Source of the DNA: an uncultured virus (IMG/VR IMGVR_UViG_3300028027_000046)
Taxonomy: Duplodnaviria; Heunggongvirae; Uroviricota; Caudoviricetes
DNA: 64,000 bases
Reading direction: 5' to 3' (one strand)
IMG/VR virus record: IMGVR_UViG_3300028027_000046
Made by a program: the position numbers and the translations under genes. Each line of letters starts with the position of its first letter. Positions within the stretch are counted from its first letter, which is position 1. Below are positions 8,889-56,086 of the stretch, in pieces. The notes under the pieces are model-generated. The model saw only the letters and a program-made list of their open reading frames with translations, did no database searches and had not been told where the DNA came from.

Positions 8889-8914
8889 GTCACCACATAT
8901 GTATTGATATAAAT

Positions 8915-8988
8915 GGGGGATTAGCTCAGTTGATTAGAGCGCTACACTTGCAATGTAGAGGTCGCCAGTTTGACTCTGGCATTCTCCA
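8915..8988 (+). tRNA. tRNA-Ala(UGC)
   Basis: Acceptor GGGGGAT/ATTCTCC-A with G3:U70; anticodon arm CTACA-CTTGCAA-TGTAG; T arm GCCAG-TTTGACT-CTGGC; CCA not encoded. Confidence 0.95.
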
Positions 8989-9040
8989 CTTCGAACCCAC
9001 TCTTAGCAGTGGGTTCCTTTAACTTTACCACCATCCACAT

Positions 9041-9652
9041 ATGAAACACACAATACTAGCTATACTGCTACTAGTTACATCTGCGCTATTCAGCCAAACC
9101 ATTGACACAATCATTTCCACCCCACACTACAAGTCATACATCAGTAAAAAACTCAAGCAACCGGTATACGTAAAATACGTCATATACAAAGGCGGGGGAG
9201 ACTGTAAACGCAGCGACCGATGGACAAACCCAACCAAACTACCACTACTCAACCACGAATATAGCCATTCAGGCTACGACCGTGGACATTTAGCAAACGC
9301 GGAAGACTTCGCGTACGATTGCCATTTATCCGACGAAACATTTAGGCTGTACAATTGTTTACCCCAAACCACTGCACTCAATCGTGGTGTGTGGAAACAG
9401 TGGGAAACCAAAATACGCCACGAATCACAAACCGATTCACTGCTAGTGATATGTGGTGGTATATGGGAAACAACCACCGTTAAAGCAAAAATGCGTATAC
9501 CCACTAAATGCTGGAAAGTAGTATACAATTTACGTACACATACAGTAGTACATGCACTAGTATTCACAAACACAATTGACCCAGTTTGCACTGAAACTAC
9601 AATCCAGGACATAAACAAACGTTTGGGCTTCAATTTAGCACTTACCTTTTAA
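9041..9652 (+). CDS. secreted DNA/RNA non-specific endonuclease (NucA/Serratia family)
   Basis: Signal peptide; YDRGHL, NCLPQ, LNRGVW and IPTKCWKVV motifs. Confidence 0.9.
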   Translation: MKHTILAILLLVTSALFSQTIDTIISTPHYKSYISKKLKQPVYVKYVIYKGGGDCKRSDRWTNPTKLPLLNHEYSHSGYDRGHLANAEDFAYDCHLSDETFRLYNCLPQTTALNRGVWKQWETKIRHESQTDSLLVICGGIWETTTVKAKMRIPTKCWKVVYNLRTHTVVHALVFTNTIDPVCTETTIQDINKRLGFNLALTF

Positions 9653-9714
9653 AAATACGTGTATACCATACACACTATTTGTATATTTAACCAAACATAA
9701 AAATATATATAAAC

Positions 9715-9858
9715 ATGTCAAAAAACACAGCAAAACAAAGAGCGGAATGCATGCAAGGATGGTTAGCGTCAGTTAAACGCCCGCAACCAGTTAAAAAACG
9801 CATCGTACACGAAAGTAAAATTTCACTAGACGAAATCCTACGCACGCAAAACAAATAG
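9715..9858 (+). CDS. small basic hypothetical protein
   Basis: MSKNTAKQRAECMQGWLASVKR...QNK*, after the promoter motif at about 9681; below the ORF-track cutoff. Confidence 0.5.
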   Translation: MSKNTAKQRAECMQGWLASVKRPQPVKKRIVHESKISLDEILRTQNK

Positions 9859-9863
9859 ACGCA

Positions 9864-10706
9864 ATGAAAGACATCCGCACACTATATCAACAATACTGCG
9901 AGTCATATTCCATTCCGTTTCAGCACGACAACAAGGTAAATCCATACGACGATACTACCTTGTTTTGTCCTGCGGGTATGCAGCAATTCAAGCACAAATT
10001 TAAAAACCCGGACAACACTACAATCGCAAACATACAATCGTGTATTCGTTTGCAGGACATTGAGGAAATAGGCGACGGTACACACTTGCTACACTTCAAT
10101 ATGCTCGGTTTATTTTCATTTGGCGAGCTAACCATGCAACAAGCGGTTCACTTTTGGATGCGATTCATCGAATCCACACTCGAAATCAAAGTAGACACAA
10201 TCACCATACACCCAGACAAACTAAACGAGTGGAAACACATGTACGAAGCGTACCCTCACCTAAACATCACCACAGACGAGGAATGTATCTGGTCGGATGG
10301 TGAAATGGGTGGTTACTGTACTGAATTCTATGTGAACGGAGTGGAAATAGGCAACATAGTGAACACGTTAGATCAATTCATAGACGTTGGATTCGGCATG
10401 GAACGCCTTGAGCTCATGGCGAATGGCGAACAAGTAAAGTCCGCGCTGGATACGCTGCGAGAAACAATCGAACGCATCATCGACTCGGGCTACAAACCTG
10501 GACCACAAAAGCAAGGATATATTTTGCGTAAATTGCTACGCGAACTGTATGTACAGGGTGGTACTATGGAACACCCATACTTCACACAAGAAGTGGAGCG
10601 TCAAAACAAAGCAAAGGTACGTTACGAACGGTTAGTAGTTAAACATCCAGACATGCCGAAGGAATGGTGGTTTGATACTCACGGAGTAGATTTAGATCTC
10701 CTGTAA
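9864..10706 (+). CDS. alaS: truncated alanyl-tRNA synthetase (catalytic domain plus part of the helical domain)
   Basis: DDTTLFCPAGMQQFK, QSCIR, HLLHFNMLGLFSFG, VEIGNIV, IDVGFGMERL and GYILRKLLR match class II AlaRS motifs; no editing or C-Ala domain. Confidence 0.88.
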   Translation: MKDIRTLYQQYCESYSIPFQHDNKVNPYDDTTLFCPAGMQQFKHKFKNPDNTTIANIQSCIRLQDIEEIGDGTHLLHFNMLGLFSFGELTMQQAVHFWMRFIESTLEIKVDTITIHPDKLNEWKHMYEAYPHLNITTDEECIWSDGEMGGYCTEFYVNGVEIGNIVNTLDQFIDVGFGMERLELMANGEQVKSALDTLRETIERIIDSGYKPGPQKQGYILRKLLRELYVQGGTMEHPYFTQEVERQNKAKVRYERLVVKHPDMPKEWWFDTHGVDLDLL

Positions 10707-10917
10707 AAAAACGTGACCCCCACATATGTATGTCGTATATTGACTGAAAAGACAGGAAAATATTAGCCCAAAGTACACGGGAACGTAAGCAGCGCAAGGC
10801 CGTCACTTTATGTGAGTAAATGGATTGGGATAACCCGGTCGCCGCACACTCGGCTCCAAATCGTATGTTGGCACAAGTTTGTATGTTTTAGTGGTGCTCT
10901 CAGCAAAACATACACAT

Positions 10918-10990
10918 AGCAGGCGGGAGGTAAGGTATCTCATTGGTCTCATAAGCCAACCAAATTCGGTTCGATTCCGAAGCGTTGCTA
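10918..10990 (+). tRNA. tRNA with CAU anticodon (Met or Ile2), irregular acceptor stem
   Basis: Anticodon arm TTGGT-CTCATAA-GCCAA; T arm TTCGG-TTCGATT-CCGAA; AGCAGGC pairs with GC(G)TTGCT only with a bulge. Confidence 0.85.
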
Positions 10991-10998
10991 CGAATAAT

Positions 10999-11230
10999 TC
11001 AGTGAGGTACACTGGAAAATATGCAGGACCTGGGTTCGACACCCAGCACGTCCACCACAAACCGACAATACATCATATATGGGCGTGTATTTGGCTTTGA
11101 CTGCATATGAGGTACGGTATACTGAGAGTTATTTAACGCTTTAAACGGCAACCAAAACCATATGAGCATTGCTGCCTAGTAGGTAGTTTTACTCAAAGCA
11201 TTTATCCCATTTGGCTTAGTTAAATGGGAA
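10999..11230 (+). ncRNA. ssrA: circularly permuted (two-piece) tmRNA
   Basis: The 3' acceptor piece (GGAC-CTGGG-TTCGACA-CCCAG-CACGTCC-ACCA, ending at 11057) comes before the 5' piece (GGGCGTG-TATTTGGCTTTGAC from 11081). G3:U70 pair; TGCATAT/ATATGCA helix 2; tag GNQNHMSIAA then TAG TAG at 11147-11182. Outer boundaries approximate. Confidence 0.9.
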
Positions 11231-11232
11231 CT

Positions 11233-11317
11233 GGAAAAGTGGGTGAGTGGTTTAAACCAACGGTCTTGAAAACCGTCGTACTGAAAAGTACCATGCGTTC
11301 GAATCGCATCTTTTCCG
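11233..11317 (+). tRNA. tRNA-Ser(UGA)
   Basis: GGAAAAG/CTTTTCC-G acceptor; ACGGT-CTTGAAA-ACCGT; long variable arm GTAC-TGAAAA-GTAC; TTCGAAT loop. Confidence 0.95.
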
Positions 11318-11368
11318 CTGGGTCGCACCCTTCCGAACTCTCGTAATATGTATAATAAAATATATATT

Positions 11369-11770
11369 ATGAGAACATGTTCGAAGTGTAAACAAGAAAA
11401 AGAAGCTAGTGACTTCTATAAAAATCGCAAAAACAAAGTCAGTGGTTTGTCATCATGGTGTAAAGCATGTCAATCCTCAGACAAAAAAATACATTATGCT
11501 AATAATAAAGATTACTATATATGGCGTGGTTTAGAAAATAAGAAATGGTTCTACGACTTTAAGAAAACACTAAGTTGCAATAGATGTGGATTTGCCCATC
11601 CTGCTGCATTAGATTTCCACCATATAGATCCATCGACTAAATCATTTCATTTTGCATCCATTAATCCTGTGTTAAAAAATAAAGATGTAATAATGAACGA
11701 AATAGCAAAATGTGAAGTATTGTGTTCTAATTGCCATCGAATAGAACATGCTAAACATTACAACGTTTAA
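11369..11770 (+). CDS. HNH endonuclease with N-terminal zinc finger
   Basis: CSKC...WCKAC; CNRC...LDFHH...CEVLCSNCHRIEH. Confidence 0.88.
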   Translation: MRTCSKCKQEKEASDFYKNRKNKVSGLSSWCKACQSSDKKIHYANNKDYYIWRGLENKKWFYDFKKTLSCNRCGFAHPAALDFHHIDPSTKSFHFASINPVLKNKDVIMNEIAKCEVLCSNCHRIEHAKHYNV

Positions 11771-11857: not shown

Positions 11858-11930
11858 GCCTCTGTAGCTCAGTTGGTAGAGCATTTGATTTGTAATCAAA
11901 AGGTCGCTGGATCATAGCCGGCCAGAGGCT
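11858..11930 (+). tRNA. tRNA-Thr(UGU)
   Basis: GCCTCTG/CAGAGGC-T acceptor; TTTGA-TTTGTAA-TCAAA; atypical T loop ATCATAG. Confidence 0.9.
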
Positions 11931-12386
11931 CAATAGTACACACCACGCTACCCACTTGAACAGCGTACCAGGGTGTGCCTTTTACCCCCTGTCGATAGCA
12001 TCGGTAGGAATAGCTCCAGTGCTCAAACCATCAGAACTGCCCACTGGACATCCCGCTGCATGGGAAAGCAATGTGTCGCTCGAGCAACCATTGTATAACC
12101 AGCAACACCCCCACCCATACCCACAGACGTGTGGGTTTTGGTTGGGTTTTACACTTTAAATTTATATTGTTATGCTCGTACTATTCATTTTATCTATCGC
12201 ACTAATATTTATGTTAACGTTCATTGCTTCGGGAATTTACATTGCATATGTCGTGTTCAAAACACCAACACTACCAACTGAGGAAGACACACCTGAAAAA
12301 GATACCCGCGAACTATTGAAAGGGTAGTTGGCTATTTGGATATTCATTCGTATATTCCAGTATATTAATAATTAACAATTAAGGTT

Positions 12387-16089: not shown

Positions 16090-16371
16090 ATGCCAGAATT
16101 AACTAAATACAGCCAATTTGTAGACGTTGATGTTGAAATTGACGTAGATGAATTTTTAGACGCATGCTCCACACACGAAATAAACGAGGTAGTGGAGTGG
16201 TTGCAAAACGGTGACTATATTAAAATGTCACATTTAATTAATGACTCTCGCATGTCCATGGGTGATCTCGAATACATCAAAATCATAAACAAACTAACCG
16301 ATCCTATGGTTCGCTTCCGTTTAAGCGAGGAAGAAATGTGTATATTGCAACAAATATCAGATAAATTATGA
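16090..16371 (+). CDS. hypothetical protein
   Basis: 93-aa acidic ORF coupled to queC. Confidence 0.65.
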   Translation: MPELTKYSQFVDVDVEIDVDEFLDACSTHEINEVVEWLQNGDYIKMSHLINDSRMSMGDLEYIKIINKLTDPMVRFRLSEEEMCILQQISDKL

Positions 16372-17075
16372 AAAAAGGAAAAGCAATTGTAGTATTTTCG
16401 GGTGGACAAGATTCTACTACATGCCTATACTGGGCATTAAACAGATACGAAACCGTAGAAGCCATTACATTCCAGTATGGGCAAAAACATTCAATCGAGG
16501 TTGAACAATCCATTAAAATATTGGAAAAAACCGGAGTAAAACAAGTTGTGGTTAATTTAGACCAATCGTTGGGTTACTTAGCAGAAAGTGCACTTACATC
16601 CAATGGTGATGTATCCCAAATCAATAAGTATGGTTTACCATCCTCGTTTGTACCGGGTAGAAACGGTATATTTCTGTACAATGCATATGTTTATGCGTTA
16701 AAAACTAATACGGATGCGTTAGTGACGGGAGTTTGTCAAACTGACTATAGCGGTTACCCTGATTGCAGACGTGATTTCGTTGATTCATTGCTTGAAACAA
16801 TGAACTTGGGTGTATTTGGAGAAAAAGCATCTGGTTTATCCATCGAAACACCATTAATGTACTTAGACAAAGCAGATACATTCAAATTAGCATTAGACGA
16901 GGGATGTTTAGACGACGTAATTTCATTGTCCCACACATGCTACAATGGAGAAAGAACATACCAACACGAGTGGGGATTCAGCTCAGAGCAAGGCACACCA
17001 GAAGACCCATTCTGCCCAGCATGTGAATTGAGAGCAAAAGGGTGGGACGAGTTCAAAACTAGATACAATTACTAA
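16368..17075 (+). CDS. queC: 7-cyano-7-deazaguanine synthase
   Basis: SGGQDS PP-loop, YGQKH, VPGRN, YPDCR, TCY...CPAC. Confidence 0.95.
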   Translation: MKKGKAIVVFSGGQDSTTCLYWALNRYETVEAITFQYGQKHSIEVEQSIKILEKTGVKQVVVNLDQSLGYLAESALTSNGDVSQINKYGLPSSFVPGRNGIFLYNAYVYALKTNTDALVTGVCQTDYSGYPDCRRDFVDSLLETMNLGVFGEKASGLSIETPLMYLDKADTFKLALDEGCLDDVISLSHTCYNGERTYQHEWGFSSEQGTPEDPFCPACELRAKGWDEFKTRYNY

Positions 17076-17086
17076 ACATACAATAC

Positions 17087-17410
17087 ATGATTGTCCGAAG
17101 TAACACAATGTTGTTTATTTTTGGTTTATTTTTAGGAAAAATGGGTAAACATATAACTGCACTAGCATTTTACCCATTTATTTTTGTATCAAAAGATGCA
17201 ACCGTAACACCTCAACTAATCAACCATGAACGTATACATTTGAGACAGCAAATAGAAATGTTAATTTTGCCATTTTATATTTGGTATTTAGTTGAATACT
17301 ACACCAAAGGCTACTGGAGCATATCATTTGAGCGAGAAGCATATAGGAACCAGGACAACCCACACTATTTAACCAATCGACCAATATTTAACTTCACTAA
17401 ACATATATAA
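17087..17410 (+). CDS. small HExxH membrane protein
   Basis: NHERIHLRQQ...SFEREAY. Confidence 0.7.
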   Translation: MIVRSNTMLFIFGLFLGKMGKHITALAFYPFIFVSKDATVTPQLINHERIHLRQQIEMLILPFYIWYLVEYYTKGYWSISFEREAYRNQDNPHYLTNRPIFNFTKHI

Positions 17411-17641
17411 ACAATGAAACACCCAGATCCAAAATTACACCAACTAGTTAGCTTCGTGAAATCCGGAGTACGCATCATCGGATACACATTTATCCCATTC
17501 TCACTAACATATGCAACAGCGGCATTAATAGTATCTGAATTAATAGGAATTGCAGAGGAACTTGTCTAGCCAAACATCCATTCGTATATTCCAGCATAAA
17601 GCAAGTAAAACGAAATGGTTTTACTTTAAAATAAAGGTTGT

Positions 17642-18310
17642 ATGAAAGTATGGTTTTGTGTTGTAGCTATATTAGCTACCATGGGTTGCAAGAAAGTAGA
17701 AGTCGACCCTTACCCATTCGTAAATGGGAAACAGTCCAAATTAACAATGAAATATGAACAGGACATCAACGGGTACTATTTAGTACCCATTGATTCCAAT
17801 TCAAATTCAAACCGTGTGGACTTATACGTAGAGGCATCCGAATTAATAGACCACTACAAATACAATGGTGTGTCGGTAATTGAGGCAGAATTTGACTGTA
17901 GCTCATACTGGGTACTAGGTATACTTGGAAGCGATTTAGGTATCGTTTTACCACTATACCAACCATTTGGGAGCTACCATTTCCCATCCGGTAAACCAAT
18001 TGCCGTAGCAGACACCATGATGCCACTGGACCAATTCAAAAACTCCATGGTTCCCATGGTCACCAAATACGGAATATACTTGAAAGAATACTTTGGTGGC
18101 GACATGTACAAACCAGCAGACGAATATAAACCTGAACCAGGCATGCTTTGGAGCAAGAAAATTGCTGGACCTATACCAGGATATTTTGTTGGCGATACTA
18201 TTTCCGTATATTCCAAAATATTTTGGGATTGTAGTAACTGGTCAGTTACTCACCCAAAACAAACATTTCAAACCAATTCAATTAAAATTATATTTAAATC
18301 TAAACAATAG
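17642..18310 (+). CDS. lipoprotein
   Basis: Lipobox ATMGC followed by KKVE. Confidence 0.7.
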   Translation: MKVWFCVVAILATMGCKKVEVDPYPFVNGKQSKLTMKYEQDINGYYLVPIDSNSNSNRVDLYVEASELIDHYKYNGVSVIEAEFDCSSYWVLGILGSDLGIVLPLYQPFGSYHFPSGKPIAVADTMMPLDQFKNSMVPMVTKYGIYLKEYFGGDMYKPADEYKPEPGMLWSKKIAGPIPGYFVGDTISVYSKIFWDCSNWSVTHPKQTFQTNSIKIIFKSKQ

Positions 18311-18313
18311 CAT

Positions 18314-18733
18314 ATGGCACAATTTACATCTCCACAATTAACATCTTGTTTTAGACAATGGCGTGCTGAAGGTACACACTGTAGGTTTACCCACGCATAT
18401 AAAGTATGGTTTGAGTTGGATTTTGACCAAGACATCAATGGTATATTTAATTCATATCCTGAATTAAAATTGTACCTTAATGAATGGTTTCTATCTAATT
18501 TTAACTACAAAACATTTGTATCTGAAAATGACCCTGAACTAGACACATTTAAACTACTCGATCAAAACAAAGCCATTTCACTAGTAACAATACCAGAAGT
18601 GGGGTGTGAGCGTTTTTCGGAATATGTTTTGGATAACGTCAATGTTATACTAAGTCAATTTGATTTAGATATTAAATGTGTTCGGGTAGAGACATGGGAA
18701 CATGAAAAAAACAGTGGAGTAGCTTACATATAA
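18314..18733 (+). CDS. queD: 6-carboxytetrahydropterin synthase homologue, copy A
   Basis: CFRQWRAEGTHCRFTHAY, ENDP, VGCERF and WEHEKNS; lacks the WVxDFG and DH motifs. Confidence 0.85.
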   Translation: MAQFTSPQLTSCFRQWRAEGTHCRFTHAYKVWFELDFDQDINGIFNSYPELKLYLNEWFLSNFNYKTFVSENDPELDTFKLLDQNKAISLVTIPEVGCERFSEYVLDNVNVILSQFDLDIKCVRVETWEHEKNSGVAYI

Positions 18734-18783
18734 ATTGTACTTACATGCATGGTGGTAATATGTATAATAAAACATAATCCACC

Positions 18784-19695
18784 ATGACAAGACAAACATT
18801 GAATAAGCAACTCATATTAGACTTATATAATCAAAACCCCACTAAAGGAAAATACTGGGTGGCAGATCAGTTAGGTTTAAATAGGAGTTCCGTTAGCACG
18901 TTAATAAATAAATATTGTACTAATAATTTACCCCTTGACAAAGAATTAGAGAGTATGGTAAAAGAATTACTTCCCTTATTCCCATATACCGGTACTAAAA
19001 ATAAAATAAGCAAACATCTAGGAGTTTCTCATCACACCTTAGACCAATTACTCCATAAAACCCAGGATATATTAATAATTGATCATTTTAATACTCCCAA
19101 ATGTAGTTCATCCAAACTAACAGATACTGATATTCAGGATGTACTGGATGGGAGTAAATTGGGTATAGGTAATGACCAAATGGGTTTAATTAAAGGAGTT
19201 GATGGTATTAGTATAAGAAATATACGAAAAAAATTGCTCACTAAGGAAGAATATGCTCAGTACCATTCAATAGAACGATTTTATTCAGGTGACTACAATG
19301 CTTACTATAATGACCGTGGGGATAAATTTTTATCAACGTGGGAAGAAAAATTAGCTGACCATATGTTTGAAATTGGTGTTAAATATTTTTCAAATGTTCG
19401 TCTATCTTACGATGGTAAAAACTATTCACCCGATTTTTATTTACCCAAAACAAGAACATTCATCGAGGTATTTGGTATGTCCAATATTAACACATACAAA
19501 TCACGAATGAATGAAAAAATTGAATTTTACAATAGCAACAACATTAAGTGTTTATTCCTATTTGAAGATAGTTTTATGTTAAACAGAAAACCTGTAGACT
19601 CATATAAAGTTAATTTAGATAATTTCCTAACCGAAATAGAAGGTCGTATATTTAATCAACATATAAAGAAAATCCATATAAACAATAAAAAATGA
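18784..19695 (+). CDS. free-standing PD-(D/E)XK endonuclease with N-terminal HTH repeats (putative homing endonuclease)
   Basis: STWEEK...YSPDFYLP...FIEVFG; AT-rich; own ATATGTATA motif at 18758; lies between the queD copies. Confidence 0.75.
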   Translation: MTRQTLNKQLILDLYNQNPTKGKYWVADQLGLNRSSVSTLINKYCTNNLPLDKELESMVKELLPLFPYTGTKNKISKHLGVSHHTLDQLLHKTQDILIIDHFNTPKCSSSKLTDTDIQDVLDGSKLGIGNDQMGLIKGVDGISIRNIRKKLLTKEEYAQYHSIERFYSGDYNAYYNDRGDKFLSTWEEKLADHMFEIGVKYFSNVRLSYDGKNYSPDFYLPKTRTFIEVFGMSNINTYKSRMNEKIEFYNSNNIKCLFLFEDSFMLNRKPVDSYKVNLDNFLTEIEGRIFNQHIKKIHINNKK

Positions 19696-20126
19696 AAAAA
19701 TTCCAGTCATCAAAATTAATGGACGGTTATTCTACATGTTATAGAAACCATTCCGCAACAGACCAAACACAACAACTGCATGGATGTGATATTAAATTCA
19801 GAATGCACTTTGAAGGTGAATTGGACCATAGAAACTGGGTTGCTGATTTTGGTTGGATGAAGCGTTCCAAGCAAACTATATCCGGAATGAGTGTAAAGGA
19901 TTATTTTTCGTATTTGTTTGACCATACATGTCTTATTCAAAATGACGATCCACTTAGAGAAACATTTGAGGACATGAACCGTAAAGGCACCATTCAACTC
20001 CGACTAATGGATTCAACCACTAAGGAGGGAATCGAGAAATATTTATTCAATACAATCCAGACGCTTATTACCGACGAAACCGAAGGAAGAGTAAATCTTG
20101 TAAAATTAGAAGTAACTAATTACTAA
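19692..20126 (+). CDS. queD: 6-carboxytetrahydropterin synthase homologue, copy B
   Basis: KFQSSK, LHG, GELDHRNWVADFG, LFDHT, NDDP; lacks the HC cysteine and the terminal EHEKNS. Confidence 0.85.
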   Translation: MKKFQSSKLMDGYSTCYRNHSATDQTQQLHGCDIKFRMHFEGELDHRNWVADFGWMKRSKQTISGMSVKDYFSYLFDHTCLIQNDDPLRETFEDMNRKGTIQLRLMDSTTKEGIEKYLFNTIQTLITDETEGRVNLVKLEVTNY

Positions 20127-20130
20127 ACCC

Positions 20131-20244
20131 ATGGATACCCCAACAATTAGACAATATGGTAACGTTCAGCTAGCTTGGACTTATACCACTTCGTGGGATC
20201 CCGAGTTCCCTCAACCATTAATCGTAAAATACACAATCAAATGA
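20131..20244 (+). CDS. 37-aa small protein
   Basis: Fills the gap exactly and has an ATGA overlap with the thioredoxin start. Confidence 0.45.
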   Translation: MDTPTIRQYGNVQLAWTYTTSWDPEFPQPLIVKYTIK

Positions 20245-20483
20245 AACAATTAATTTACTTTTACGGTACATTTTGCAACCCATGCAAATCATTTAGACCC
20301 ACTGTTGACCGTGTCAGCCAATCATACCCAGTGAAATTCGTTGATGTCGACCAAGAACCACAACTCGTAGCAGAATACGGCATTCGTGCCGTACCTACAG
20401 TAGTTGTAGTGGAAAATGGCCGTGCCATTGATAAAAAATCCGGTGTATTAACCGAAGGGCAATTAGTGAGCATGCTTGCTTAA
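20241..20483 (+). CDS. thioredoxin
   Basis: FCNPCK, VDVD, IRAVPT. Confidence 0.9.
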   Translation: MKQLIYFYGTFCNPCKSFRPTVDRVSQSYPVKFVDVDQEPQLVAEYGIRAVPTVVVVENGRAIDKKSGVLTEGQLVSMLA

Positions 20484-20534
20484 AAAATTTGGCTCCGCAA
20501 GGAGCCATTTGTATCTTTAACCAAAAATAGTTAT

Positions 20535-21371
20535 ATGAAATTAAATTTAGTACACGGGGGTATATTCCCCATCAAAGGCAAACTAAACGAGGACTCCACT
20601 GGATTTCAGTACAGTGGTACATTCCAAGGTGAAGGTAAATTAACTGGAACAGCATGTCTGTTCATTCGTACATCTGCATGTAATTTGAGATGTGCATGGG
20701 TTGGGCTAGACGGAAACGGCTCACTATGCGATACACCATATTCCAGCCACAACCCGGAAAAAAATCAAATGGACGTTGAAGATATCGTTAAAATCGTAGT
20801 AGAAAATACACGCGACCAAAACATTAACCATGTTGTTATCTCAGGTGGTGAACCTACCATGCAAACAGACGCATTGGTTGAGTTAGTACAAAAATTAAAC
20901 GCTTTATTTTACCATATCACCATCGAAACAAACGCTACTATATATGATGAGCGTATTTCAAAATATTCTAATTTGATGTCCATGTCACCTAAGTTAGCAT
21001 CATCCACACCATGGGTAGCCAATTTGAAAAATTCTGGCGTAGAATACAAGCAAAAATGGGCTGAACGCCATGAACGTGATCGTATCAATATTGAGGCAAT
21101 GCAACAATATATAAATGATAGACATCATCATGATTGCGACTTTCAATTGAAATTTGTTGTTGCTACTGAACAAGACATCGAGGAAATCGAAAGCATATTA
21201 TCCCAATTAGATGGATTTGGCCCATCAGATATATGTTTAATGCCCGAGGGAGTAGATGTAAACACATTAAACTCAAGAACTGGTTGGGTAGCTGAACAAG
21301 CACTTAAACGTGGGTGGAGATTTTGCCCTCGCTTACACATCATGATGTTTGGAAAAAACCGCTATGTTTGA
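20535..21371 (+). CDS. queE: 7-carboxy-7-deazaguanine synthase (radical SAM)
   Basis: FQGEG, FIR, CNLRC-x11-CDT, SGGEP, IETN, SPKL, RLH. Confidence 0.93.
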   Translation: MKLNLVHGGIFPIKGKLNEDSTGFQYSGTFQGEGKLTGTACLFIRTSACNLRCAWVGLDGNGSLCDTPYSSHNPEKNQMDVEDIVKIVVENTRDQNINHVVISGGEPTMQTDALVELVQKLNALFYHITIETNATIYDERISKYSNLMSMSPKLASSTPWVANLKNSGVEYKQKWAERHERDRINIEAMQQYINDRHHHDCDFQLKFVVATEQDIEEIESILSQLDGFGPSDICLMPEGVDVNTLNSRTGWVAEQALKRGWRFCPRLHIMMFGKNRYV

Positions 21372-21392
21372 TTTAACTAAATACACACCACC

Positions 21393-21896
21393 ATGTCCAT
21401 ACTAATAACCAAAACCGAAATCAAAAACAATGCCCGTAGGCTAGGCAATACCATCACCAAAAAACACCAACCAGACCTAGGTGATGTGGTAATGATTTGC
21501 CTGTTAAACGGCGGATTCATGTTTTTCGCTGATCTAGTACGCAACATCGATTTAAACATTAAATGTGATTTCATGCGAGTAAAGTCATACACCGGACAAG
21601 AACAATCCGAGTTGCAAATAATCAAGGACATAGAGTTAGACTTAACTGGAAAACATGTGTATATAGTTGATGACTTCTTCGATTCAGGCAATACTATGAA
21701 CGCAGTTCATGAGCGCTTAAAATCGCATAATCCTGCGTCATTAACGGCGGTTACTTTACTCAAACGATACCGTTGTAAACGACCAACCTATCCATTTATG
21801 TATGGTGTTGAAGTTAAGAAAGAATGGGTATATGGTTACGGTATGGACAATGAAGCTGGCTATTGTCGTAATTTAGACGCAATTTATAAAATTTAA
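21393..21896 (+). CDS. hpt: hypoxanthine-guanine phosphoribosyltransferase
   Basis: LNGGFMFFADL, VKSY, IVDDFFDSGNT PRPP loop, VYGYGMD...RNL. Confidence 0.9.
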   Translation: MSILITKTEIKNNARRLGNTITKKHQPDLGDVVMICLLNGGFMFFADLVRNIDLNIKCDFMRVKSYTGQEQSELQIIKDIELDLTGKHVYIVDDFFDSGNTMNAVHERLKSHNPASLTAVTLLKRYRCKRPTYPFMYGVEVKKEWVYGYGMDNEAGYCRNLDAIYKI

Positions 21897-21945
21897 CTTG
21901 GATACCACAACCCAGGTTTGTATATTCACATAAAAACAAAAACAT

Positions 21946-22659
21946 ATGAGTAGAAAAGAAAAGAAAGTAAAAGTAGAGGAACTCGAAATTGCAACAGCAG
22001 GACACGCAAACGGTATATCTACCTATTTAGCTGAACTTATCGCTAAAGGTGAGCACCGTTCATTAAACGATTTAGAAAAACTGCAAATCATTGACAAAGC
22101 AACATTCCACTACGGTGAATTCTTAACCGCACTTGGCTGTAACTGGCAAGACGACCCGAATTCAGACAATACACCTCGTCGTGTAGCAAAAGCATACGTA
22201 AATGACCTGTGGAAAGGCCGCTACGAATTAATGTCAGACGTTACTTCATTCCCATCCGACGGATATAATGGTATCGTGTTAGAGAAAAACATACCATTAA
22301 CTAGCCAATGTTCGCACCACCACCAAACAATTGAGGGTAGAGTACACATAGCATATATCCCCGGGAAAGACGGTAGTGTAGTTGGTTTATCCAAACTTAA
22401 CCGCATCGTAGAGCATTTTGGTCGTCGTGGAGCAATCCAAGAACAGTTAACTGTAGCCATCCACAACGCAATATCCAAGATTTGTTCAGGCAATATTGGT
22501 GTAATGGTCATGATTGACTCGACACATAATTGTGTAAAATGTAGAGGTGTGAAGCACTCCGGTGCATCCATGGTTACATCTGAAGTATCTGGTGTGTTCG
22601 CTAACCATACAAAAACAGCAAAACAGGAAGTAATCGAAATGATCAAATTAAAATTCTAA
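21946..22659 (+). CDS. folE: GTP cyclohydrolase I
   Basis: TPRRVAK, SQCSHH, GLSKLNR, IQEQLT, HNCVKCRG. Confidence 0.95.
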   Translation: MSRKEKKVKVEELEIATAGHANGISTYLAELIAKGEHRSLNDLEKLQIIDKATFHYGEFLTALGCNWQDDPNSDNTPRRVAKAYVNDLWKGRYELMSDVTSFPSDGYNGIVLEKNIPLTSQCSHHHQTIEGRVHIAYIPGKDGSVVGLSKLNRIVEHFGRRGAIQEQLTVAIHNAISKICSGNIGVMVMIDSTHNCVKCRGVKHSGASMVTSEVSGVFANHTKTAKQEVIEMIKLKF

Positions 22660-28250: not shown

Positions 28251-29897
28251 ATGAGCAAACAAATCAAACTAGGTGCCGAGGCACGTAAAAAATTAGCAAA
28301 CGGAATCGATACATTAGCAGACGCAGTAGTATCCAGTTTAGGTCCGCAAGGTAGAAACACAGTATACTTCCATGACGGAGTAGCTGTATCCACAAAAGAC
28401 GGTGTATCCATCGCGAAACACATTTCGGAATTGGAAGACCCAATTGAGAACTTAGGTGCGCAAATGATCAAGCAAGCCGCAATCAAAACAGCAGACAATG
28501 CAGGTGACGGTACAACTACATCAACATTATTAGCTCGTGAAATCGTTAAGCAAGGTTTGCAACGTTTAAATGAAGGCGGAAACGCAGTTGAAATCAAACG
28601 TGGAATCGATGCAGCAGTTAAGCAAGTAATCGAATCACTTAAACATTCATCCGAAAAAATCACATCTGAAGACCAGCTAGAGCAAATCGCATCTATCTCT
28701 GCAAACAATGACCCAGAAACTGGTAAATTAATTGCACGCGCAATGGAGAAAGTAGGCCGTGAAGGTGTAGTACACATTGAGGAATCTCGCACTGGCGAAA
28801 CATACTTAGAGGTAGTTGAAGGTATGCAATTTGACCGTGGCTACAAGTCACCATATTTCGTTACCAACAACAACAATATGTCAGCTGTATTAACTGACGC
28901 ATTGGTATTAATCGCTGACCATAGATTCACACAAGTGAAAGAATTGCTACCTATCTTAGACGGTGTAGCTCGTACTGGAAAATCATTACTTATCATTGCG
29001 GAAGACATCGACGGTGAAGCATTAGCTACATTAATTGTAAACAAAATGCGTGGTACGTTAAAAGTAGTTGCTGTTAAAGCACCTGACTTCGGCGACCGTA
29101 GAAAGTTAATACTAGAAGACATCGCTACATTAACTGGTGGTACTGTATTCGACAAAGACAAAGGTATGAAACTGGACAAATTCCAGGACGAATGGTTCGG
29201 AAACGCACGTACAATCACTGTAACTAAAGAACAAACCACAATCGTTGACGGTCAAGGTTCGGAAGACGCAATCACTAAACGCGTTGAAGAATTGGAAGCA
29301 CAAATCGATAAATCCACAACACCATTTGAAACTGAAAAGTTGCAAGAACGTTTGGCTAAATTTGTAGGTGGTGTTGCTTTAGTACACGTAGGTGGTAATA
29401 CTGAAACGGAAATGAAGGAAAAGAAAGACCGTGTTGACGATGCATTGCATGCAACTAAATGTGCTTTGGAAGACGGTATTGTTCCTGGTGGTGGTACAGC
29501 ATTATTGTACGCTAGAGAAGCAATCACTGAACGCGGTACAGACGGATCTGATTTTAATTTCGGTAAACGTTTAGTATATAAAGTTTGCGGTAAACCATTT
29601 GAGCAAATCTTAATCAACGCAGGATATGATGCTGCTGAAATTTACCCAATCAACATGGAAATTGGTAAAGCTGGTGAGGCTGGAACTAAACCATGGTTTG
29701 GATTCAACATCAAAACTGAGGAAATCGTAAACATGAAGGAAGCAGGTATACTTGACCCAACCAAAGTAACATGCAGCGCCCTTAAAAATGCATCCAGCAT
29801 TGCCGGTACAATTTTATTAACCGAGTGTGTTATCGTAGACAAGCCAGAAGACAAGAAAGAAGACGGTGGCTACGATCCATCTCAAATGATGATGTAA
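28251..29897 (+). CDS. groEL: chaperonin GroEL
   Basis: LGPQGRN, TKDGVS, GDGTTT, EGMQFDRGY, KLQERLAK, GIVPGGG. Confidence 0.98.
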   Translation: MSKQIKLGAEARKKLANGIDTLADAVVSSLGPQGRNTVYFHDGVAVSTKDGVSIAKHISELEDPIENLGAQMIKQAAIKTADNAGDGTTTSTLLAREIVKQGLQRLNEGGNAVEIKRGIDAAVKQVIESLKHSSEKITSEDQLEQIASISANNDPETGKLIARAMEKVGREGVVHIEESRTGETYLEVVEGMQFDRGYKSPYFVTNNNNMSAVLTDALVLIADHRFTQVKELLPILDGVARTGKSLLIIAEDIDGEALATLIVNKMRGTLKVVAVKAPDFGDRRKLILEDIATLTGGTVFDKDKGMKLDKFQDEWFGNARTITVTKEQTTIVDGQGSEDAITKRVEELEAQIDKSTTPFETEKLQERLAKFVGGVALVHVGGNTETEMKEKKDRVDDALHATKCALEDGIVPGGGTALLYAREAITERGTDGSDFNFGKRLVYKVCGKPFEQILINAGYDAAEIYPINMEIGKAGEAGTKPWFGFNIKTEEIVNMKEAGILDPTKVTCSALKNASSIAGTILLTECVIVDKPEDKKEDGGYDPSQMMM

Positions 29898-36392: not shown

Positions 36393-36659
36393 ATGAAATT
36401 ACTAAGACCCGAAGTAGAAAAAGACATAGTCCCTTTAACTAGTTGCTCACTATTTGATATGGCTGACAACATAGCCAAAATGTGCTATAACATAACAGAA
36501 GAAGAATATTTGAAAATACTAAACGAAGCCACTGAGGAAGAAATAGCTCATTTTGCCGTTGTATTTGATGATTCTCCTGAAAGTTTTACATTTACCGCAT
36601 ATAAACAGGGGCTAAGAGTGAGAAACAAATATGTGGAATATTTTAACCATAAGTTATGA
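36393..36659 (+). CDS. hypothetical protein, paralogue of 57860..58108
   Basis: Both start MK(L/I)LRPEV and contain VRNKY. Confidence 0.7.
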   Translation: MKLLRPEVEKDIVPLTSCSLFDMADNIAKMCYNITEEEYLKILNEATEEEIAHFAVVFDDSPESFTFTAYKQGLRVRNKYVEYFNHKL

Positions 36660-37318
36660 ATATAGTATTTTTTACCGGAGCAGGTATATCAGAAGAAAGC
36701 GGTATACCTACATTCAGAACAGGAGAAGACAGCATCTGGAACCGATACAACCCAGACATAGTATGTAATATTAGAGCGTGGCCCCACCACAAAGAAAAAA
36801 TCCTGTCATTCTTCAATGAAGTCAGATCTTGGGTGGAAAAATGTGAACCTAACCAAGCCCACATAGACATAGCTCAACTTGAAAATACACATACTGTACA
36901 TGTAATCACAACAAACATAGACGAGTTGCATGAGAATGCTGGATCCACTAATGTAATCCATGTACATGGAAATATATTTGAATGTTGCGATGTTAACTAT
37001 CACCATATTGAACCATGTCACACTGATATAAACATAGGAGATGTTCACCCTAAATCAAACTCCCAACTTAGACACAATGTAGTCATGTTTGGAGAGATGC
37101 CTTACCATTTCACCAAAGCAATGCGCATTATATCCCAAGCCGATATACTAGTTGTTATCGGCACATCATTAAGTGTATACCCAGCGGCGGGATTAGTGGA
37201 ATCATTCAAAGGACAAATATACTATATTGACCCAGAAGCTCGTTCTATAAACGATAAAACCATTGCCATTAATAAGAAAGCAACGGATGGCGTAAAAGAA
37301 TTTATTTCATTAATTTAA
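36656..37318 (+). CDS. Sir2/CobB-family NAD-dependent deacylase
   Basis: TGAGISEESGIPTFR, TTNIDELHE, HVHG, VMFGE, GTSLSVYPAA. Confidence 0.95.
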   Translation: MNIVFFTGAGISEESGIPTFRTGEDSIWNRYNPDIVCNIRAWPHHKEKILSFFNEVRSWVEKCEPNQAHIDIAQLENTHTVHVITTNIDELHENAGSTNVIHVHGNIFECCDVNYHHIEPCHTDINIGDVHPKSNSQLRHNVVMFGEMPYHFTKAMRIISQADILVVIGTSLSVYPAAGLVESFKGQIYYIDPEARSINDKTIAINKKATDGVKEFISLI

Positions 37319-54099: not shown

Positions 54100-54435
54100 A
54101 TGGCAAATAATTTAGACAAACAATACACAACATTACTGCAAGACATCTTGGATAACGGTCATCAAAAAGGTGACCGTACAGGAACGGGAACTATATCAGT
54201 ATTTGGTAGACAGATCAGACATAAGATGTCAGAAGGATTTCCACTTCTTACCACAAAGAAAATGTATATGAAAGGAGTTATTGCAGAATTATTATGGTTC
54301 TTACGTGGTGATACAAACATTAAATTCCTTGTTGATAATAATTGTCATATTTGGGTAGGAGATTCCTTTTCTAACTACATGAAGGAATATGAAAAATATA
54401 AACAATCTCAAGAAAATGTTGAGAAGGAATGTTAA
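54100..54435 (+). CDS. thyA: thymidylate synthase, N-terminal piece
   Basis: [26 protein letters not shown]; ends at a TAA. Confidence 0.93.
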
Positions 54436-54472
54436 ATTTGGAATTTTCATATATTTATAATAAAATAATATT

Positions 54473-55279
54473 ATGAGTGTAGGGATTTACAAAATTACAA
54501 CCCCAAGTGGTAAAATTTATATTGGGCAATCAACTAATCTTGAAAAAAGAGAAGATGATTATATAAAACTTAGATGTGGTAAACAACCTAAACTGTATAA
54601 TTCTCTTAAAAAACACGGATGGGAAAAACATAAATTTGAAATAGTAGAAGAGTGCATTGTAGAACAATTAAATGAAAGAGAAATATATTGGGGATTATAC
54701 TATGATGTTTTAGGAGAAAATGGTCTAAATTTAAGATTAGGAGATGCTAATGGGTTATGTAGTCAAGAAACTAAAGATAAAATAGGTTTATCTAACTCGG
54801 GACCTAAACCTAACGGGTTTAATCAAAAATTAAGTAAACCCGTTTTACAATTTGATAAACAAGGTATCTTGATAGCCGAATATACTTCATATAACAATGC
54901 AGTTAAAATTACAGGTTTACGTTTAGCTGAAGTTTTAAGAGGAGCTGCTAAAACCGCAGGTGGATTTATTTTTAAATACAAAGATGACTGGGATGGAAAT
55001 CCACCAATGATAAAACCCCATGGTAAAATAGGTAAACCGTCGTCTCTTAAGGGTAGGGTTAGCCCCACTAAAGGTAAATCAATAAATAAAAAGCCCAAAA
55101 CAGAAGAATTTAAAAATAAGTTAAGCAAACCCATATTACAATTAGATTTAGAAGGTAATATTATATATGAATTTAAATCACAAACTGAAGTAAAACAATT
55201 ATTAAATATAGACCCTCAGAATGTTTTAAGAGGAAAAACTAAAACAGCAGGTGGTTATAAATGGAAATATAAAATATAA
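54473..55279 (+). CDS. GIY-YIG homing endonuclease
   Basis: VGIYKITTPSGKIYIGQS; two KP(V/I)LQ...AGG(F/Y) NUMOD1-like repeats; KGRVSPTKGK shared with 644..1444. Confidence 0.92.
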   Translation: MSVGIYKITTPSGKIYIGQSTNLEKREDDYIKLRCGKQPKLYNSLKKHGWEKHKFEIVEECIVEQLNEREIYWGLYYDVLGENGLNLRLGDANGLCSQETKDKIGLSNSGPKPNGFNQKLSKPVLQFDKQGILIAEYTSYNNAVKITGLRLAEVLRGAAKTAGGFIFKYKDDWDGNPPMIKPHGKIGKPSSLKGRVSPTKGKSINKKPKTEEFKNKLSKPILQLDLEGNIIYEFKSQTEVKQLLNIDPQNVLRGKTKTAGGYKWKYKI

Positions 55280-55282
55280 GTT

Positions 55283-56086
55283 ATGAAATTTAAAAAAGAA
55301 GATTTACATGAAAGTGGCAGACCACTCACACAAGAAGAATTCATAAACAAAATCAAAACAGATGATGAGTTTGCTAAGAAGTGGGGTGATTTAGGCCCCG
55401 TATATGGTAAGCAATGGAGAGAGTGGAAACAATTTATCCCATATGATGTAACATCCGAAAATTGTAAAGTCGCTGTTAAAATAACTGACCAAATAGCAAA
55501 TGCAATCCATCACCTAAAAACAAACCCAGACGATAGAGGTATCATCGTTTCAGCTTGGAATGTTGGTGAATTAAATAATATGGTTTTACGACCTTGTCAT
55601 TATGGATTTCAAGTTTATACAAGAGAGTTGAGTAATGAAGAAAGATGTAAATTAGCTGTTAATGAAGGATGGATGGATAAATCCGTTTTAGACGATATAG
55701 ATGGCGTAAACCACATACAAACTACTTGGACTTTAAATGCTAATAATACCCCAACAAGAGCAATCTCATTGATGTGGAATCAACGAAGTGTAGATACTGG
55801 GTTAGGGTTAGGTTTTAATATAGCAAGCTATGGATTGCTATTAGAAATAATAGCAAAAGAAGTTAATATGGTTCCTGATGAACTCATAGGGAATTTAGGA
55901 GACGTGCATTTGTATTTGGATCATGTAGAACCAATTAAAGAACAATTAAATAGAGATCCATTTAATCTACCTAAATTAAAAATTAAGGATAAACAGGTGA
56001 ATGATATCTCTCAATATATTGTAAGTGATTTTGAATTGATTGATTATCAATTCCACCCGCCCATTAAACTTCCATTATCAAATTAA
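55283..56086 (+). CDS. thyA: thymidylate synthase, C-terminal catalytic piece
   Basis: DLGPVYGKQWR, SAWN, LRPCH, QRSVD..LG..FN, DVHLY. Confidence 0.95.
   Translation: MKFKKEDLHESGRPLTQEEFINKIKTDDEFAKKWGDLGPVYGKQWREWKQFIPYDVTSENCKVAVKITDQIANAIHHLKTNPDDRGIIVSAWNVGELNNMVLRPCHYGFQVYTRELSNEERCKLAVNEGWMDKSVLDDIDGVNHIQTTWTLNANNTPTRAISLMWNQRSVDTGLGLGFNIASYGLLLEIIAKEVNMVPDELIGNLGDVHLYLDHVEPIKEQLNRDPFNLPKLKIKDKQVNDISQYIVSDFELIDYQFHPPIKLPLSN

Follow-up and report, generated by a model that had tools for sequence, protein, structure and literature searches.

The analysed DNA is a stretch of 64,000 nucleotides (hereafter, the window) of the record IMGVR_UViG_3300028027_000046, which stems from an uncultured virus of the Caudoviricetes. 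Public DNA runs containing this stretch, or about half of its words, come from subsurface, lake and other freshwater metagenomes. In the 64 kb of the window, ARAGORN calls four genes for RNAs, which lie on the + strand between positions 8915 and 11931 and mark out a small island of RNA genes in the genome of a large freshwater phage. Inside the island sits a gene (9864–10706, + strand) encoding a condensed alanyl-tRNA synthetase (AlaRS) homologue of 280 residues, which matches Pfam family PF01411 and is the sole aminoacyl-tRNA synthetase homologue found in the window. A tRNA-Ala gene, the AlaRS gene and a permuted transfer-messenger RNA (tmRNA) gene are all carried on the + strand and span no more than 2.3 kb. 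From the sequence alone, an earlier reading of this DNA (the original prediction) had joined these parts into a self-contained trans-translation arm, in which the phage charges its own tRNA-Ala and tmRNA with its own enzyme. ARAGORN, Rfam, Pfam and direct reading place the tRNA-Ala with its G3:U70 pair, the 280-residue AlaRS homologue and the permuted tmRNA with a second G3:U70 pair exactly where that prediction had put them. The end coordinate given for the module, 11230, is reasonable, as a tRNA-Ser gene starts at position 11233.

The tRNA-Ala(UGC) gene covers positions 8915–8989 according to ARAGORN and 8915–8988 according to Rfam (RF00005, 64.8 bits, E 8.6e-12; + strand). Its acceptor stem, read directly as GGGGGAU/AUUCUCC, contains the G3:U70 pair and A73, while the CCA end is not encoded.

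The product of the 9864–10706 ORF matches the tRNA-synt_2c family (PF01411) with an E-value of 4.5e-20 (72.1 bits, cut-off 30.3), and the crystal-structure sequence of A. aeolicus AlaRS (1riq) with an E-value of 4.6e-10. The E-values of the enzyme and of the tRNA-Ala and tmRNA lie far outside what chance would give. The score against TIGR00344 (alaS), 74.6 bits, is far under the equivalog cut-off of 457, and no family dedicated to the condensed AlaRS is present in NCBIfam. In an alignment of 30 family members, to which residues 1–470 of E. coli AlaS were added, the condensed protein ends at about residue 409–412 of the E. coli enzyme, and neither the editing domain nor the C-Ala domain is present. 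Additional segments are lost internally, at roughly residues 188–206, 216–227 and 261–287 of E. coli AlaS and in parts of the helical domain. As judged from this alignment, the protein is the whole aminoacylation domain, shrunk by internal deletions, and not a bare catalytic core.

Residues R62, W143, E154, N164, V166, D174 and G176 of the alanine/ATP pocket correspond to identical residues of E. coli AlaRS, namely R69, W170, E183, N212, V214, D235 and G237. Conservation was counted in 145 family members of 255–335 residues, and the pocket positions are kept in 144–145 of them. The numbering of G237 was checked against the PDB titles of structural matches; a role of D235 in the pocket is described in the available part of PMC12143591. 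At the C-terminus, a family motif, W-W-x-D-T-H-G, aligns with the Y-D-T-Y-G motif of the E. coli enzyme that contains D400. In the available text of PMC10036535, N303 and D400 are the Asn and Asp that read G3:U70 in E. coli AlaRS, and D400 is hydrogen-bonded to G3. The residue equivalent to D400 is D271 in the condensed protein; Asp is found at this position in 124 of the 145 members, T272 is kept in 138 and G274 in 142.

The AlphaFold2 model obtained from the alignment of 30 family members has a pLDDT of 93.8 and a pTM of 0.86. The top Foldseek matches are all AlaRS aminoacylation fragments (E-values of about 1e-15 to 1e-16, TMq 0.76–0.79), the best being 9jc7_A (E 2.3e-16, TMq 0.79). With VIA-align, 279 of the 280 residues are placed on residues 1–412 of E. 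coli AlaRS 3hxu (Z 25.2, rmsd 3.9), and the A. fulgidus AlaRS solved in complex with tRNA is matched over residues 59–458 (3wqy_B, Z 20.6). GlyQ matches residues 1–199 only (Z 16.5). The protein might in principle bind acceptor stems without productive charging, and serve as a decoy or shield for the ends of tRNA-Ala or tmRNA, or as a regulator. Its small size, the shortened recognition domain and the loss of the C-Ala domain, which binds the tRNA elbow, would suit such a role. However, a near-invariant adenylate-forming pocket in 145 proteins is hard to explain without catalysis, and we regard a non-catalytic binder as extremely improbable.

The condensed AlaRS is a widespread stand-alone family of phages and Rhizobium chromids. 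A word-indexed protein search returned at least 962 proteins of about 280 residues at E ≤ 0.001; the top 120 of these 962 range from 259 to 319 residues, and all contain PF01411. An exhaustive search of representative sequences gave 1834 matches at E ≤ 0.001, 47 of which reach E ≤ 1e-30. Family members are named "alanyl-tRNA synthetase" or "alanine--tRNA ligase-related protein" in the source databases. In the phage collection, the sole close homologue (53.6% identity) is encoded by LR745206.1, an uncultured phage of 634,780 bp. In the plasmid collection, 115 records match, 90 of which are from Rhizobium; those listed are replicons of 255 kb to 2.1 Mb, and their proteins are 55–56% identical to the phage protein. 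A single-protein scan of genome contigs found only canonical AlaRS genes (23–42% identity). The Rhizobium homologues were missed in that scan because the peptide patterns used were too specific, and came to light in the plasmid collection.

The surroundings of the gene were analysed in IMG/VR, where a profile-based scan identified 79 enzyme loci, corresponding to 45 viral lineages after dereplication at 90%. Any tRNA is found at 36 of the 79 loci, a tRNA-Ala at 17 and a tmRNA at 5. For the controls, a generic tRNA pattern was used to pick viral loci around it, and 78 remained after two loci that overlap others (L337 and L370) had been dropped. tRNA-Ala is the commonest tRNA near the enzyme gene, accounting for 35 of the 305 calls; G3:U70 is present in 29 of these. 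Among the 45 lineages, 26 have tRNAs within 10 kb of the gene, and 7 have a tRNA-Ala within 1 kb. In the dereplicated set, G3:U70 tRNA-Ala makes up 22 of the 267 tRNAs near the enzyme, compared to 16 of 546 in the control loci (p 0.0012), and at least two such genes are found in 7 of the 20 arrays of five or more tRNAs, compared to 1 of 28 in controls (p 0.006); these Fisher p-values, uncorrected for phylogeny, overstate independence, because of kinship among the lineages and of controls drawn without regard to phage clade. When the G3:U70 filter is removed, at least two tRNA-Ala genes are found in 10 of the 20 arrays and in 2 of the 28 controls. For instance, in the IMG/VR lineage L160, tRNA-Ala genes with TGC, GGC and CGC anticodons are lined up upstream of the enzyme gene, at −1053, −684 and −294, respectively. 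Sets of two or three Ala isoacceptors also flank the enzyme gene in L127, L133, L151 and L162. The co-occurrence of condensed AlaRS and tRNA-Ala genes recurs across lineages, which supports the alanine-centred link of the original prediction.

We favour the reading that the condensed protein is a minimal, editing-free AlaRS that acts on G3:U70 acceptor stems and has the supply of tRNA-Ala as its biological partner, and we assign it a probability of about 60%. Alanyl-adenylate would be formed in the unchanged AlaRS pocket, and alanine would then be passed, probably through the shortened tRNA-recognition domain, to the CCA end of any G3:U70 acceptor helix. The main partner, in this and in other phages, would be the tRNA-Ala of phage and host. 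The phage may benefit from a larger supply of Ala-tRNA or from independence from the host AlaRS.

Besides the relatedness that inflates the statistics given above, several observations weigh against this assignment. Compared to a normal aminoacylation domain, the protein is short of about 130 residues, some of them from the helical recognition domain, and Pro occupies the position of E. coli N303, a position at which the 145 family members have P in 67 cases, N in 57, S in 9 and A in 7. According to the accessible portion of PMC10036535, the N461 fragment of E. coli AlaRS already binds tRNA-Ala poorly, with a Kd above 32 uM; on the other side, the same text reports that in TuAlaRS, the mini-AlaRS of a Tupanvirus, residues that read G3:U70 can be dispensable. 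No tRNA lies within 10 kb of the enzyme gene in 19 of the 45 viral lineages, and the record G003 (232.5 kb available, estimated to be 88% complete) has seven tRNAs, none of which is Ala. In a second record, G004, the tRNA-Ala is about 50 kb away from the enzyme gene, which is a caveat on the link. Among 26 lineages, a tRNA-Ala is the closest tRNA in 5, with 3.71 expected (p about 0.27), and this measure was dropped as evidence. Neither a tRNA nor a tmRNA occurs within 9 kb of the two Rhizobium loci examined.

These two Rhizobium copies, in CP140817.1 and NZ_CP018233.1, stand alone beside toxin–antitoxin pairs of the Xre/RES and Phd/VapC types and transporters. Such a setting, shared in its lack of tRNA genes by the 19 viral lineages without a nearby tRNA, may denote a function outside translation, in which a ligase activates alanine, or lactate, and modifies a protein or a small molecule. 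AlaRS-like enzymes that act in ascamycin biosynthesis are described in the available part of PMC12945691, lactyltransferase activity of AlaRS is described in that of PMC12143591, and a role of this kind has been suggested for certain other truncated AlaRS-like proteins. However, no conserved partner gene accompanies the enzyme: the commonest neighbour family is found in 5 of the 45 lineages, all members of one sub-clade. The retention of tRNA-recognition elements (D271, T272 and G274), the alignment of the whole model, beyond the catalytic core, to a tRNA-binding aminoacylation domain, and the enrichment of tRNA-Ala genes near the enzyme gene similarly argue for a tRNA substrate. A non-translational ligase is therefore unlikely in our view.

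The third part of the locus, the permuted tmRNA, was called by ARAGORN at 10965–11270 (+ strand), with the tag GNQNHMSIAA followed by two stops, the same tag that the original prediction had read. Rfam identifies it as RF04321 at 11001–11179 (66.8 bits, cut-off 47, E 1.1e-10). The acceptor piece, delimited by the Rfam alignment, covers 11001–11057 (+ strand) and includes the 5' strand of P2 (11019–11026), the T-arm (11030–11046), the 3' strand of the acceptor stem (11047–11053), A73 (11054) and an encoded CCA (11055–11057). The coding piece covers 11081–11232 (+ strand) as judged from ARAGORN and Rfam, its 3' end being deduced from the start of the tRNA-Ser gene. It includes the 5' strand of the acceptor stem (11081–11087), the 3' strand of P2 (11101–11108), the tag frame (11147–11176), the stops (11177–11182) and a hairpin (11207–11229). 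Read directly, CACGUCC (11047–11053), followed by A and CCA, pairs with GGGCGUG (11081–11087), and the stem so formed has G3:U70. The frame at 11147–11182 has a resume codon and encodes a tag that ends in Ala-Ala. With a gap of only about 50 nt between the tag stops and the tRNA-Ser gene, this is a short two-piece tmRNA. The PK1 region upstream of the tag matches the model poorly, and the Rfam alignment marks its hairpin as non-canonical and partly deleted.

Comparison with a relative of 93% identity (L107) reveals two compensatory pair changes in the T stem, and two compensatory pairs and one wobble in the P2 helix (11019–11026 with 11101–11108). The 36-nt tag frame and the 11207–11229 hairpin are identical in the two sequences. 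Compensatory changes combined with an identical tag are the pattern of a functional RNA, and on this comparative evidence the two-piece tmRNA is a real gene, evidently under selection for structure. The exact tag sequence is present in only two IMG/VR contigs, both previously known. The AlaRS gene of relatives with 90–99% identity is covered by RNA-library contigs of four studies on freshwater, and the tmRNA by those of three of them; one contig stops at 11079, two bases short of G1. We take these contigs as a weak hint that the AlaRS gene and the tmRNA are expressed, because DNA may be carried over into RNA libraries and contigs cannot show RNA ends.

The proximity of the three parts raises the possibility that the enzyme, the tRNA-Ala and the tmRNA co-evolved as a self-contained trans-translation arm, for which the mini-AlaRS is kept chiefly to charge the phage tmRNA. 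A tmRNA is present in the window-like contigs at 100% and 93% identity, and in the 93% relative, too, the three parts lie on one strand within 2.3 kb. An enzyme confined to reading the acceptor stem would have no means of rejecting the tRNA-like domain of a tmRNA. In three distant lineages, Rfam-confirmed tmRNAs lie 1.9–6.1 kb from the enzyme gene; one is permuted (L177, 69.6 bits) and two are of the standard type (L178, 120.3 bits; L181, 97.4 bits). As the tmRNA types differ, these appear to be independent juxtapositions.

The wider distribution argues against such an arm. A tmRNA lies within 10 kb of the enzyme gene in 4 of the 45 dereplicated lineages, a rate like that of the controls (3 of 78 loci, Fisher p 0.26), and is thus missing at this distance in 41 lineages. 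In the 95%-identical contig (L003/L106), a tRNA-Glu is directly followed by a tRNA-Ser at the site of the tmRNA, which is absent; the tRNA-Ala cannot be scored in this contig, since the contig end cuts the upstream flank. No RNA gene was found within 5–10 kb of the enzyme gene in the clade sharing 65–68% identity. In scans of five whole records, RF04321 reached its cut-off in two, both of them window-like contigs, and RF00023 in none. G003 (232.5 kb, estimated to be 88% complete), G004 (138 kb) and LR745206.1 all carry the enzyme, and in all three both tmRNA models remain below their cut-offs. A reverse test started from 79 viral loci pulled by a pattern for the 3' end (tRNA-like domain) of tmRNA and tRNA-Ala; an AlaRS-like gene lies within 8 kb in none of the 14 loci among them at which ARAGORN calls a tmRNA, some of these tmRNAs possibly being ssrA genes of the host at the edge of a prophage. 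A scan of metagenome contigs yielded no close relative with enough flank for the tmRNA to be scored, the contigs L450 and L451 ending 29 and 173 nt past the gene. The Rhizobium homologues, which account for 90 plasmid records, further separate the enzyme from rescue, given that neither of the two loci examined has a tRNA or tmRNA nearby.

A search for SmpB (PF01668) in the 98 ORFs of the window that were scanned gave no match, in agreement with the original prediction, and G001 and G002, records that represent 25–37% genome fragments, gave none either, but the host protein could fill this role; the records nearest to the window are IMG/VR fragments with estimated completeness in this range. 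In LR745206.1 (W01), SmpB is encoded at 332958–333383 (L434, PF01668, 177 bits). The best tmRNA match in this phage is sub-threshold (22.8 bits, at 419836–419927), so that SmpB occurs here without a detectable tmRNA.

Enzyme and tmRNA are thus distributed independently, and the three-part rescue module is not supported as a system. That the tmRNA lies next to the enzyme is particular to this one lineage, and a dedicated rescue arm is very unlikely. Of the original proposal that the phage encodes its own charging enzyme for tRNA-Ala and tmRNA, the part resting on the full pocket, the condensed recognition domain and probable G3:U70 charging survives, whereas the dedication to tmRNA has to be given up. 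The co-occurrence of short AlaRS and tmRNA genes across relatives, on which that proposal depended, did not materialize. In the literature searched, from which subscription-only papers were excluded, there is no description of a phage AlaRS–tmRNA link or of the three-part arrangement, nor of an AlaRS of about 280 residues.

Under the favoured reading, that of a minimal AlaRS partnered with tRNA-Ala, the enzyme probably alanylates G3:U70 helices. Those of the phage tRNA-Ala would be among them and, since the identity rule is shared, that of the tmRNA as well. The latter could be charged by the condensed enzyme or by its host counterpart. As a neighbour of the gene, the tmRNA is thus a plausible additional substrate of the enzyme, but would not be what the enzyme is kept for. 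A bolder claim is that this is the smallest natural synthetase of its kind, that it reads only the G3:U70 helix, and that together with the phage tRNA-Ala and tmRNA it sustains Ala decoding and ribosome rescue independently of the host AlaRS. Were this true, such independence could serve the phage when the host AlaRS or tRNAs are shut down by infection or by a defence system; we give this claim a small chance of being right.

The remaining features of the island, all on the + strand, include two additional tRNA genes called by both ARAGORN and Rfam. tRNA-Ser(UGA), at 11233–11318 (58.4 bits), is directly 3' of the tmRNA, and tRNA-Thr(UGU), at 11858–11931 (64.6 bits), is the last RNA gene of the cluster. 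Across the cluster, Rfam tRNA scores are 58–65 bits at gathering thresholds. A tRNA-like element with a CAT anticodon loop is found at 10919–10989. It scores 25.4 bits with RF00005, below the cut-off of 29, and is an 87% match to the "tRNA-Pseudo-CAT" of Aeromonas phage Akh-2; in an alignment with close relatives, an ordinary tRNA-Glu(TTC) replaces it in two of them. The intergenic stretch between the AlaRS gene and this element (10707–10918) is about as conserved as coding DNA in the three relatives aligned. No folding signal of a structured RNA was detected at 10707–10925 (fold z-score 0.53), and Rfam found nothing in the stretch after the AlaRS gene besides a sub-threshold tRNA. The motif CCACATATGTAT occurs after the AlaRS gene, at 10720–10731, and in an exact copy before the tRNA-Ala, at 8893–8904. 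As a candidate phage promoter it is not convincing: 18 matches with up to two mismatches were counted, 11.1 being expected, and 3 of 100 shuffles reach 18.

Three other ORFs of the island are on the + strand. The first, at 9041–9652, between the tRNA-Ala and the AlaRS gene, encodes a DNA/RNA non-specific endonuclease (PF01223, E 4e-27) with an N-terminal segment that resembles a signal peptide. No homologue is present in the close relatives L003 and L004, and the endonuclease is a passenger gene. The second, at 9715–9858, was taken from the ORF list; it encodes a basic protein of 47 residues that matches no Pfam family, and its end is 5 nt away from the start of the AlaRS gene. Among relatives, only the closest, L003 and L004, have kept it, at 54–56% identity. 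The third, at 11348–11770, is HNH-type endonuclease-like by the Cys/His pattern of its translation, a label that draws on this pattern and on no Pfam match. Its homologues are located elsewhere in L001, L003 and L004, and this variable placement indicates that the gene is probably mobile.

Taken as a whole, the window represents that part of a large phage genome which is devoted to replication and nucleotide metabolism. ORFs are mostly oriented in one direction (102 of 112 on one strand), and Pfam matches include ribonucleotide reductase, 7-deazaguanine genes, family-B DNA polymerase, GroEL, Sir2, glycosyltransferases and thymidylate synthase. The 7-deazaguanine (queuosine-precursor) cluster, at 16368–22659, consists of QueC, two PTPS/QueD-like proteins, a radical-SAM QueE-like protein, a phosphoribosyltransferase and GTP cyclohydrolase I, and could serve the modification of DNA or tRNA. 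A GroEL-type chaperonin and a Sir2-family protein are phage-encoded at 28251–29897 and 36656–37318, respectively. At 54100–56086, a GIY-YIG endonuclease gene divides thymidylate synthase into two ORFs. At 584–2479, a fragment of the ribonucleotide reductase large subunit, featuring an intein remnant, is found downstream of another GIY-YIG/NUMOD gene. The split thymidylate synthase, the intein remnant and the GIY-YIG genes denote heavy homing-endonuclease traffic.

AlaRS is the textbook example of an "operational code" read by a synthetase in the acceptor stem, and its plan of four domains is held to vary hardly at all. If the condensed enzyme is active, alanylation without editing is in use in phages and Rhizobium chromids, often along with extra tRNA-Ala genes. 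For trans-translation the outcome is sobering, as an attractive three-part "rescue arm" turns out not to be a conserved system; this phage lineage still offers a convenient natural case of a minimal AlaRS that may charge a two-piece tmRNA. Phage tmRNAs are known: according to the available part of PMC4131195, ssrA genes are carried by Bxz1-group mycobacteriophages and by Bacillus phage G, as in the phage described here, and tmRNA, SmpB and synthetase genes of huge phages are reported in that of PMC7162821. No link to a phage AlaRS or tRNA-Ala is drawn in the accessible text of either study. The tmRNA of the window differs from these known examples in its short two-piece form, and no SmpB is seen in the DNA available.

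Among proteins of similar architecture, GlyQ, the alpha subunit of bacterial GlyRS, is the next-best structural match after AlaRS. Like the condensed AlaRS, it has about 300 residues and an AlaRS-related class II core. In contrast, GlyQ needs a separate beta subunit for tRNA binding, whereas the condensed AlaRS has a reduced recognition domain of its own and no conserved partner gene, and is placed by Pfam in the AlaRS family. The best structural matches, the AlaRS441 and N461 fragments of the E. coli enzyme (3hxu and related entries), share the pocket of the condensed AlaRS and follow the same logic at the acceptor stem. These are laboratory truncations about 160 residues longer, whereas the phage protein is natural and strongly conserved, with loops and helices removed. 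Another reduced natural form, the "small-AlaRS" of CPR bacteria and DPANN/Asgard archaea, is cited in the available portion of bioRxiv 10.1101/2023.05.29.542759 as evidence that a core made of the catalytic domain and an acceptor-stem latch can suffice. According to the same source, small-AlaRS keeps the editing domain, which is missing from the much shorter condensed family.

The closest parallel is TuAlaRS, a Tupanvirus mini-AlaRS of 461 residues (Commun Biol 2023, PMC10036535), here compared on the basis of the part of that report which is available, where it is called the sole natural synthetase with an aminoacylation domain alone. Like the condensed AlaRS, TuAlaRS is viral, has neither an editing domain nor a C-Ala domain and carries Pro where the E. 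coli enzyme has N303; despite this Pro, it targets the acceptor stem only and charges only G3:U70 substrates. Tupanvirus likewise encodes its own G3:U70 tRNA-Ala genes. The two enzymes differ at the position of D400, where the Asp is kept in the condensed AlaRS and replaced by Thr in TuAlaRS, and in origin, as TuAlaRS comes from a eukaryotic giant virus, and the condensed AlaRS, known here by sequence and model, from phages and Rhizobium chromids. TuAlaRS also retains a full-length catalytic and tRNA-recognition domain, whereas internal deletions have brought the phage protein down to 280 residues; if the latter is active, the lower size limit of a working AlaRS drops by about 40%.

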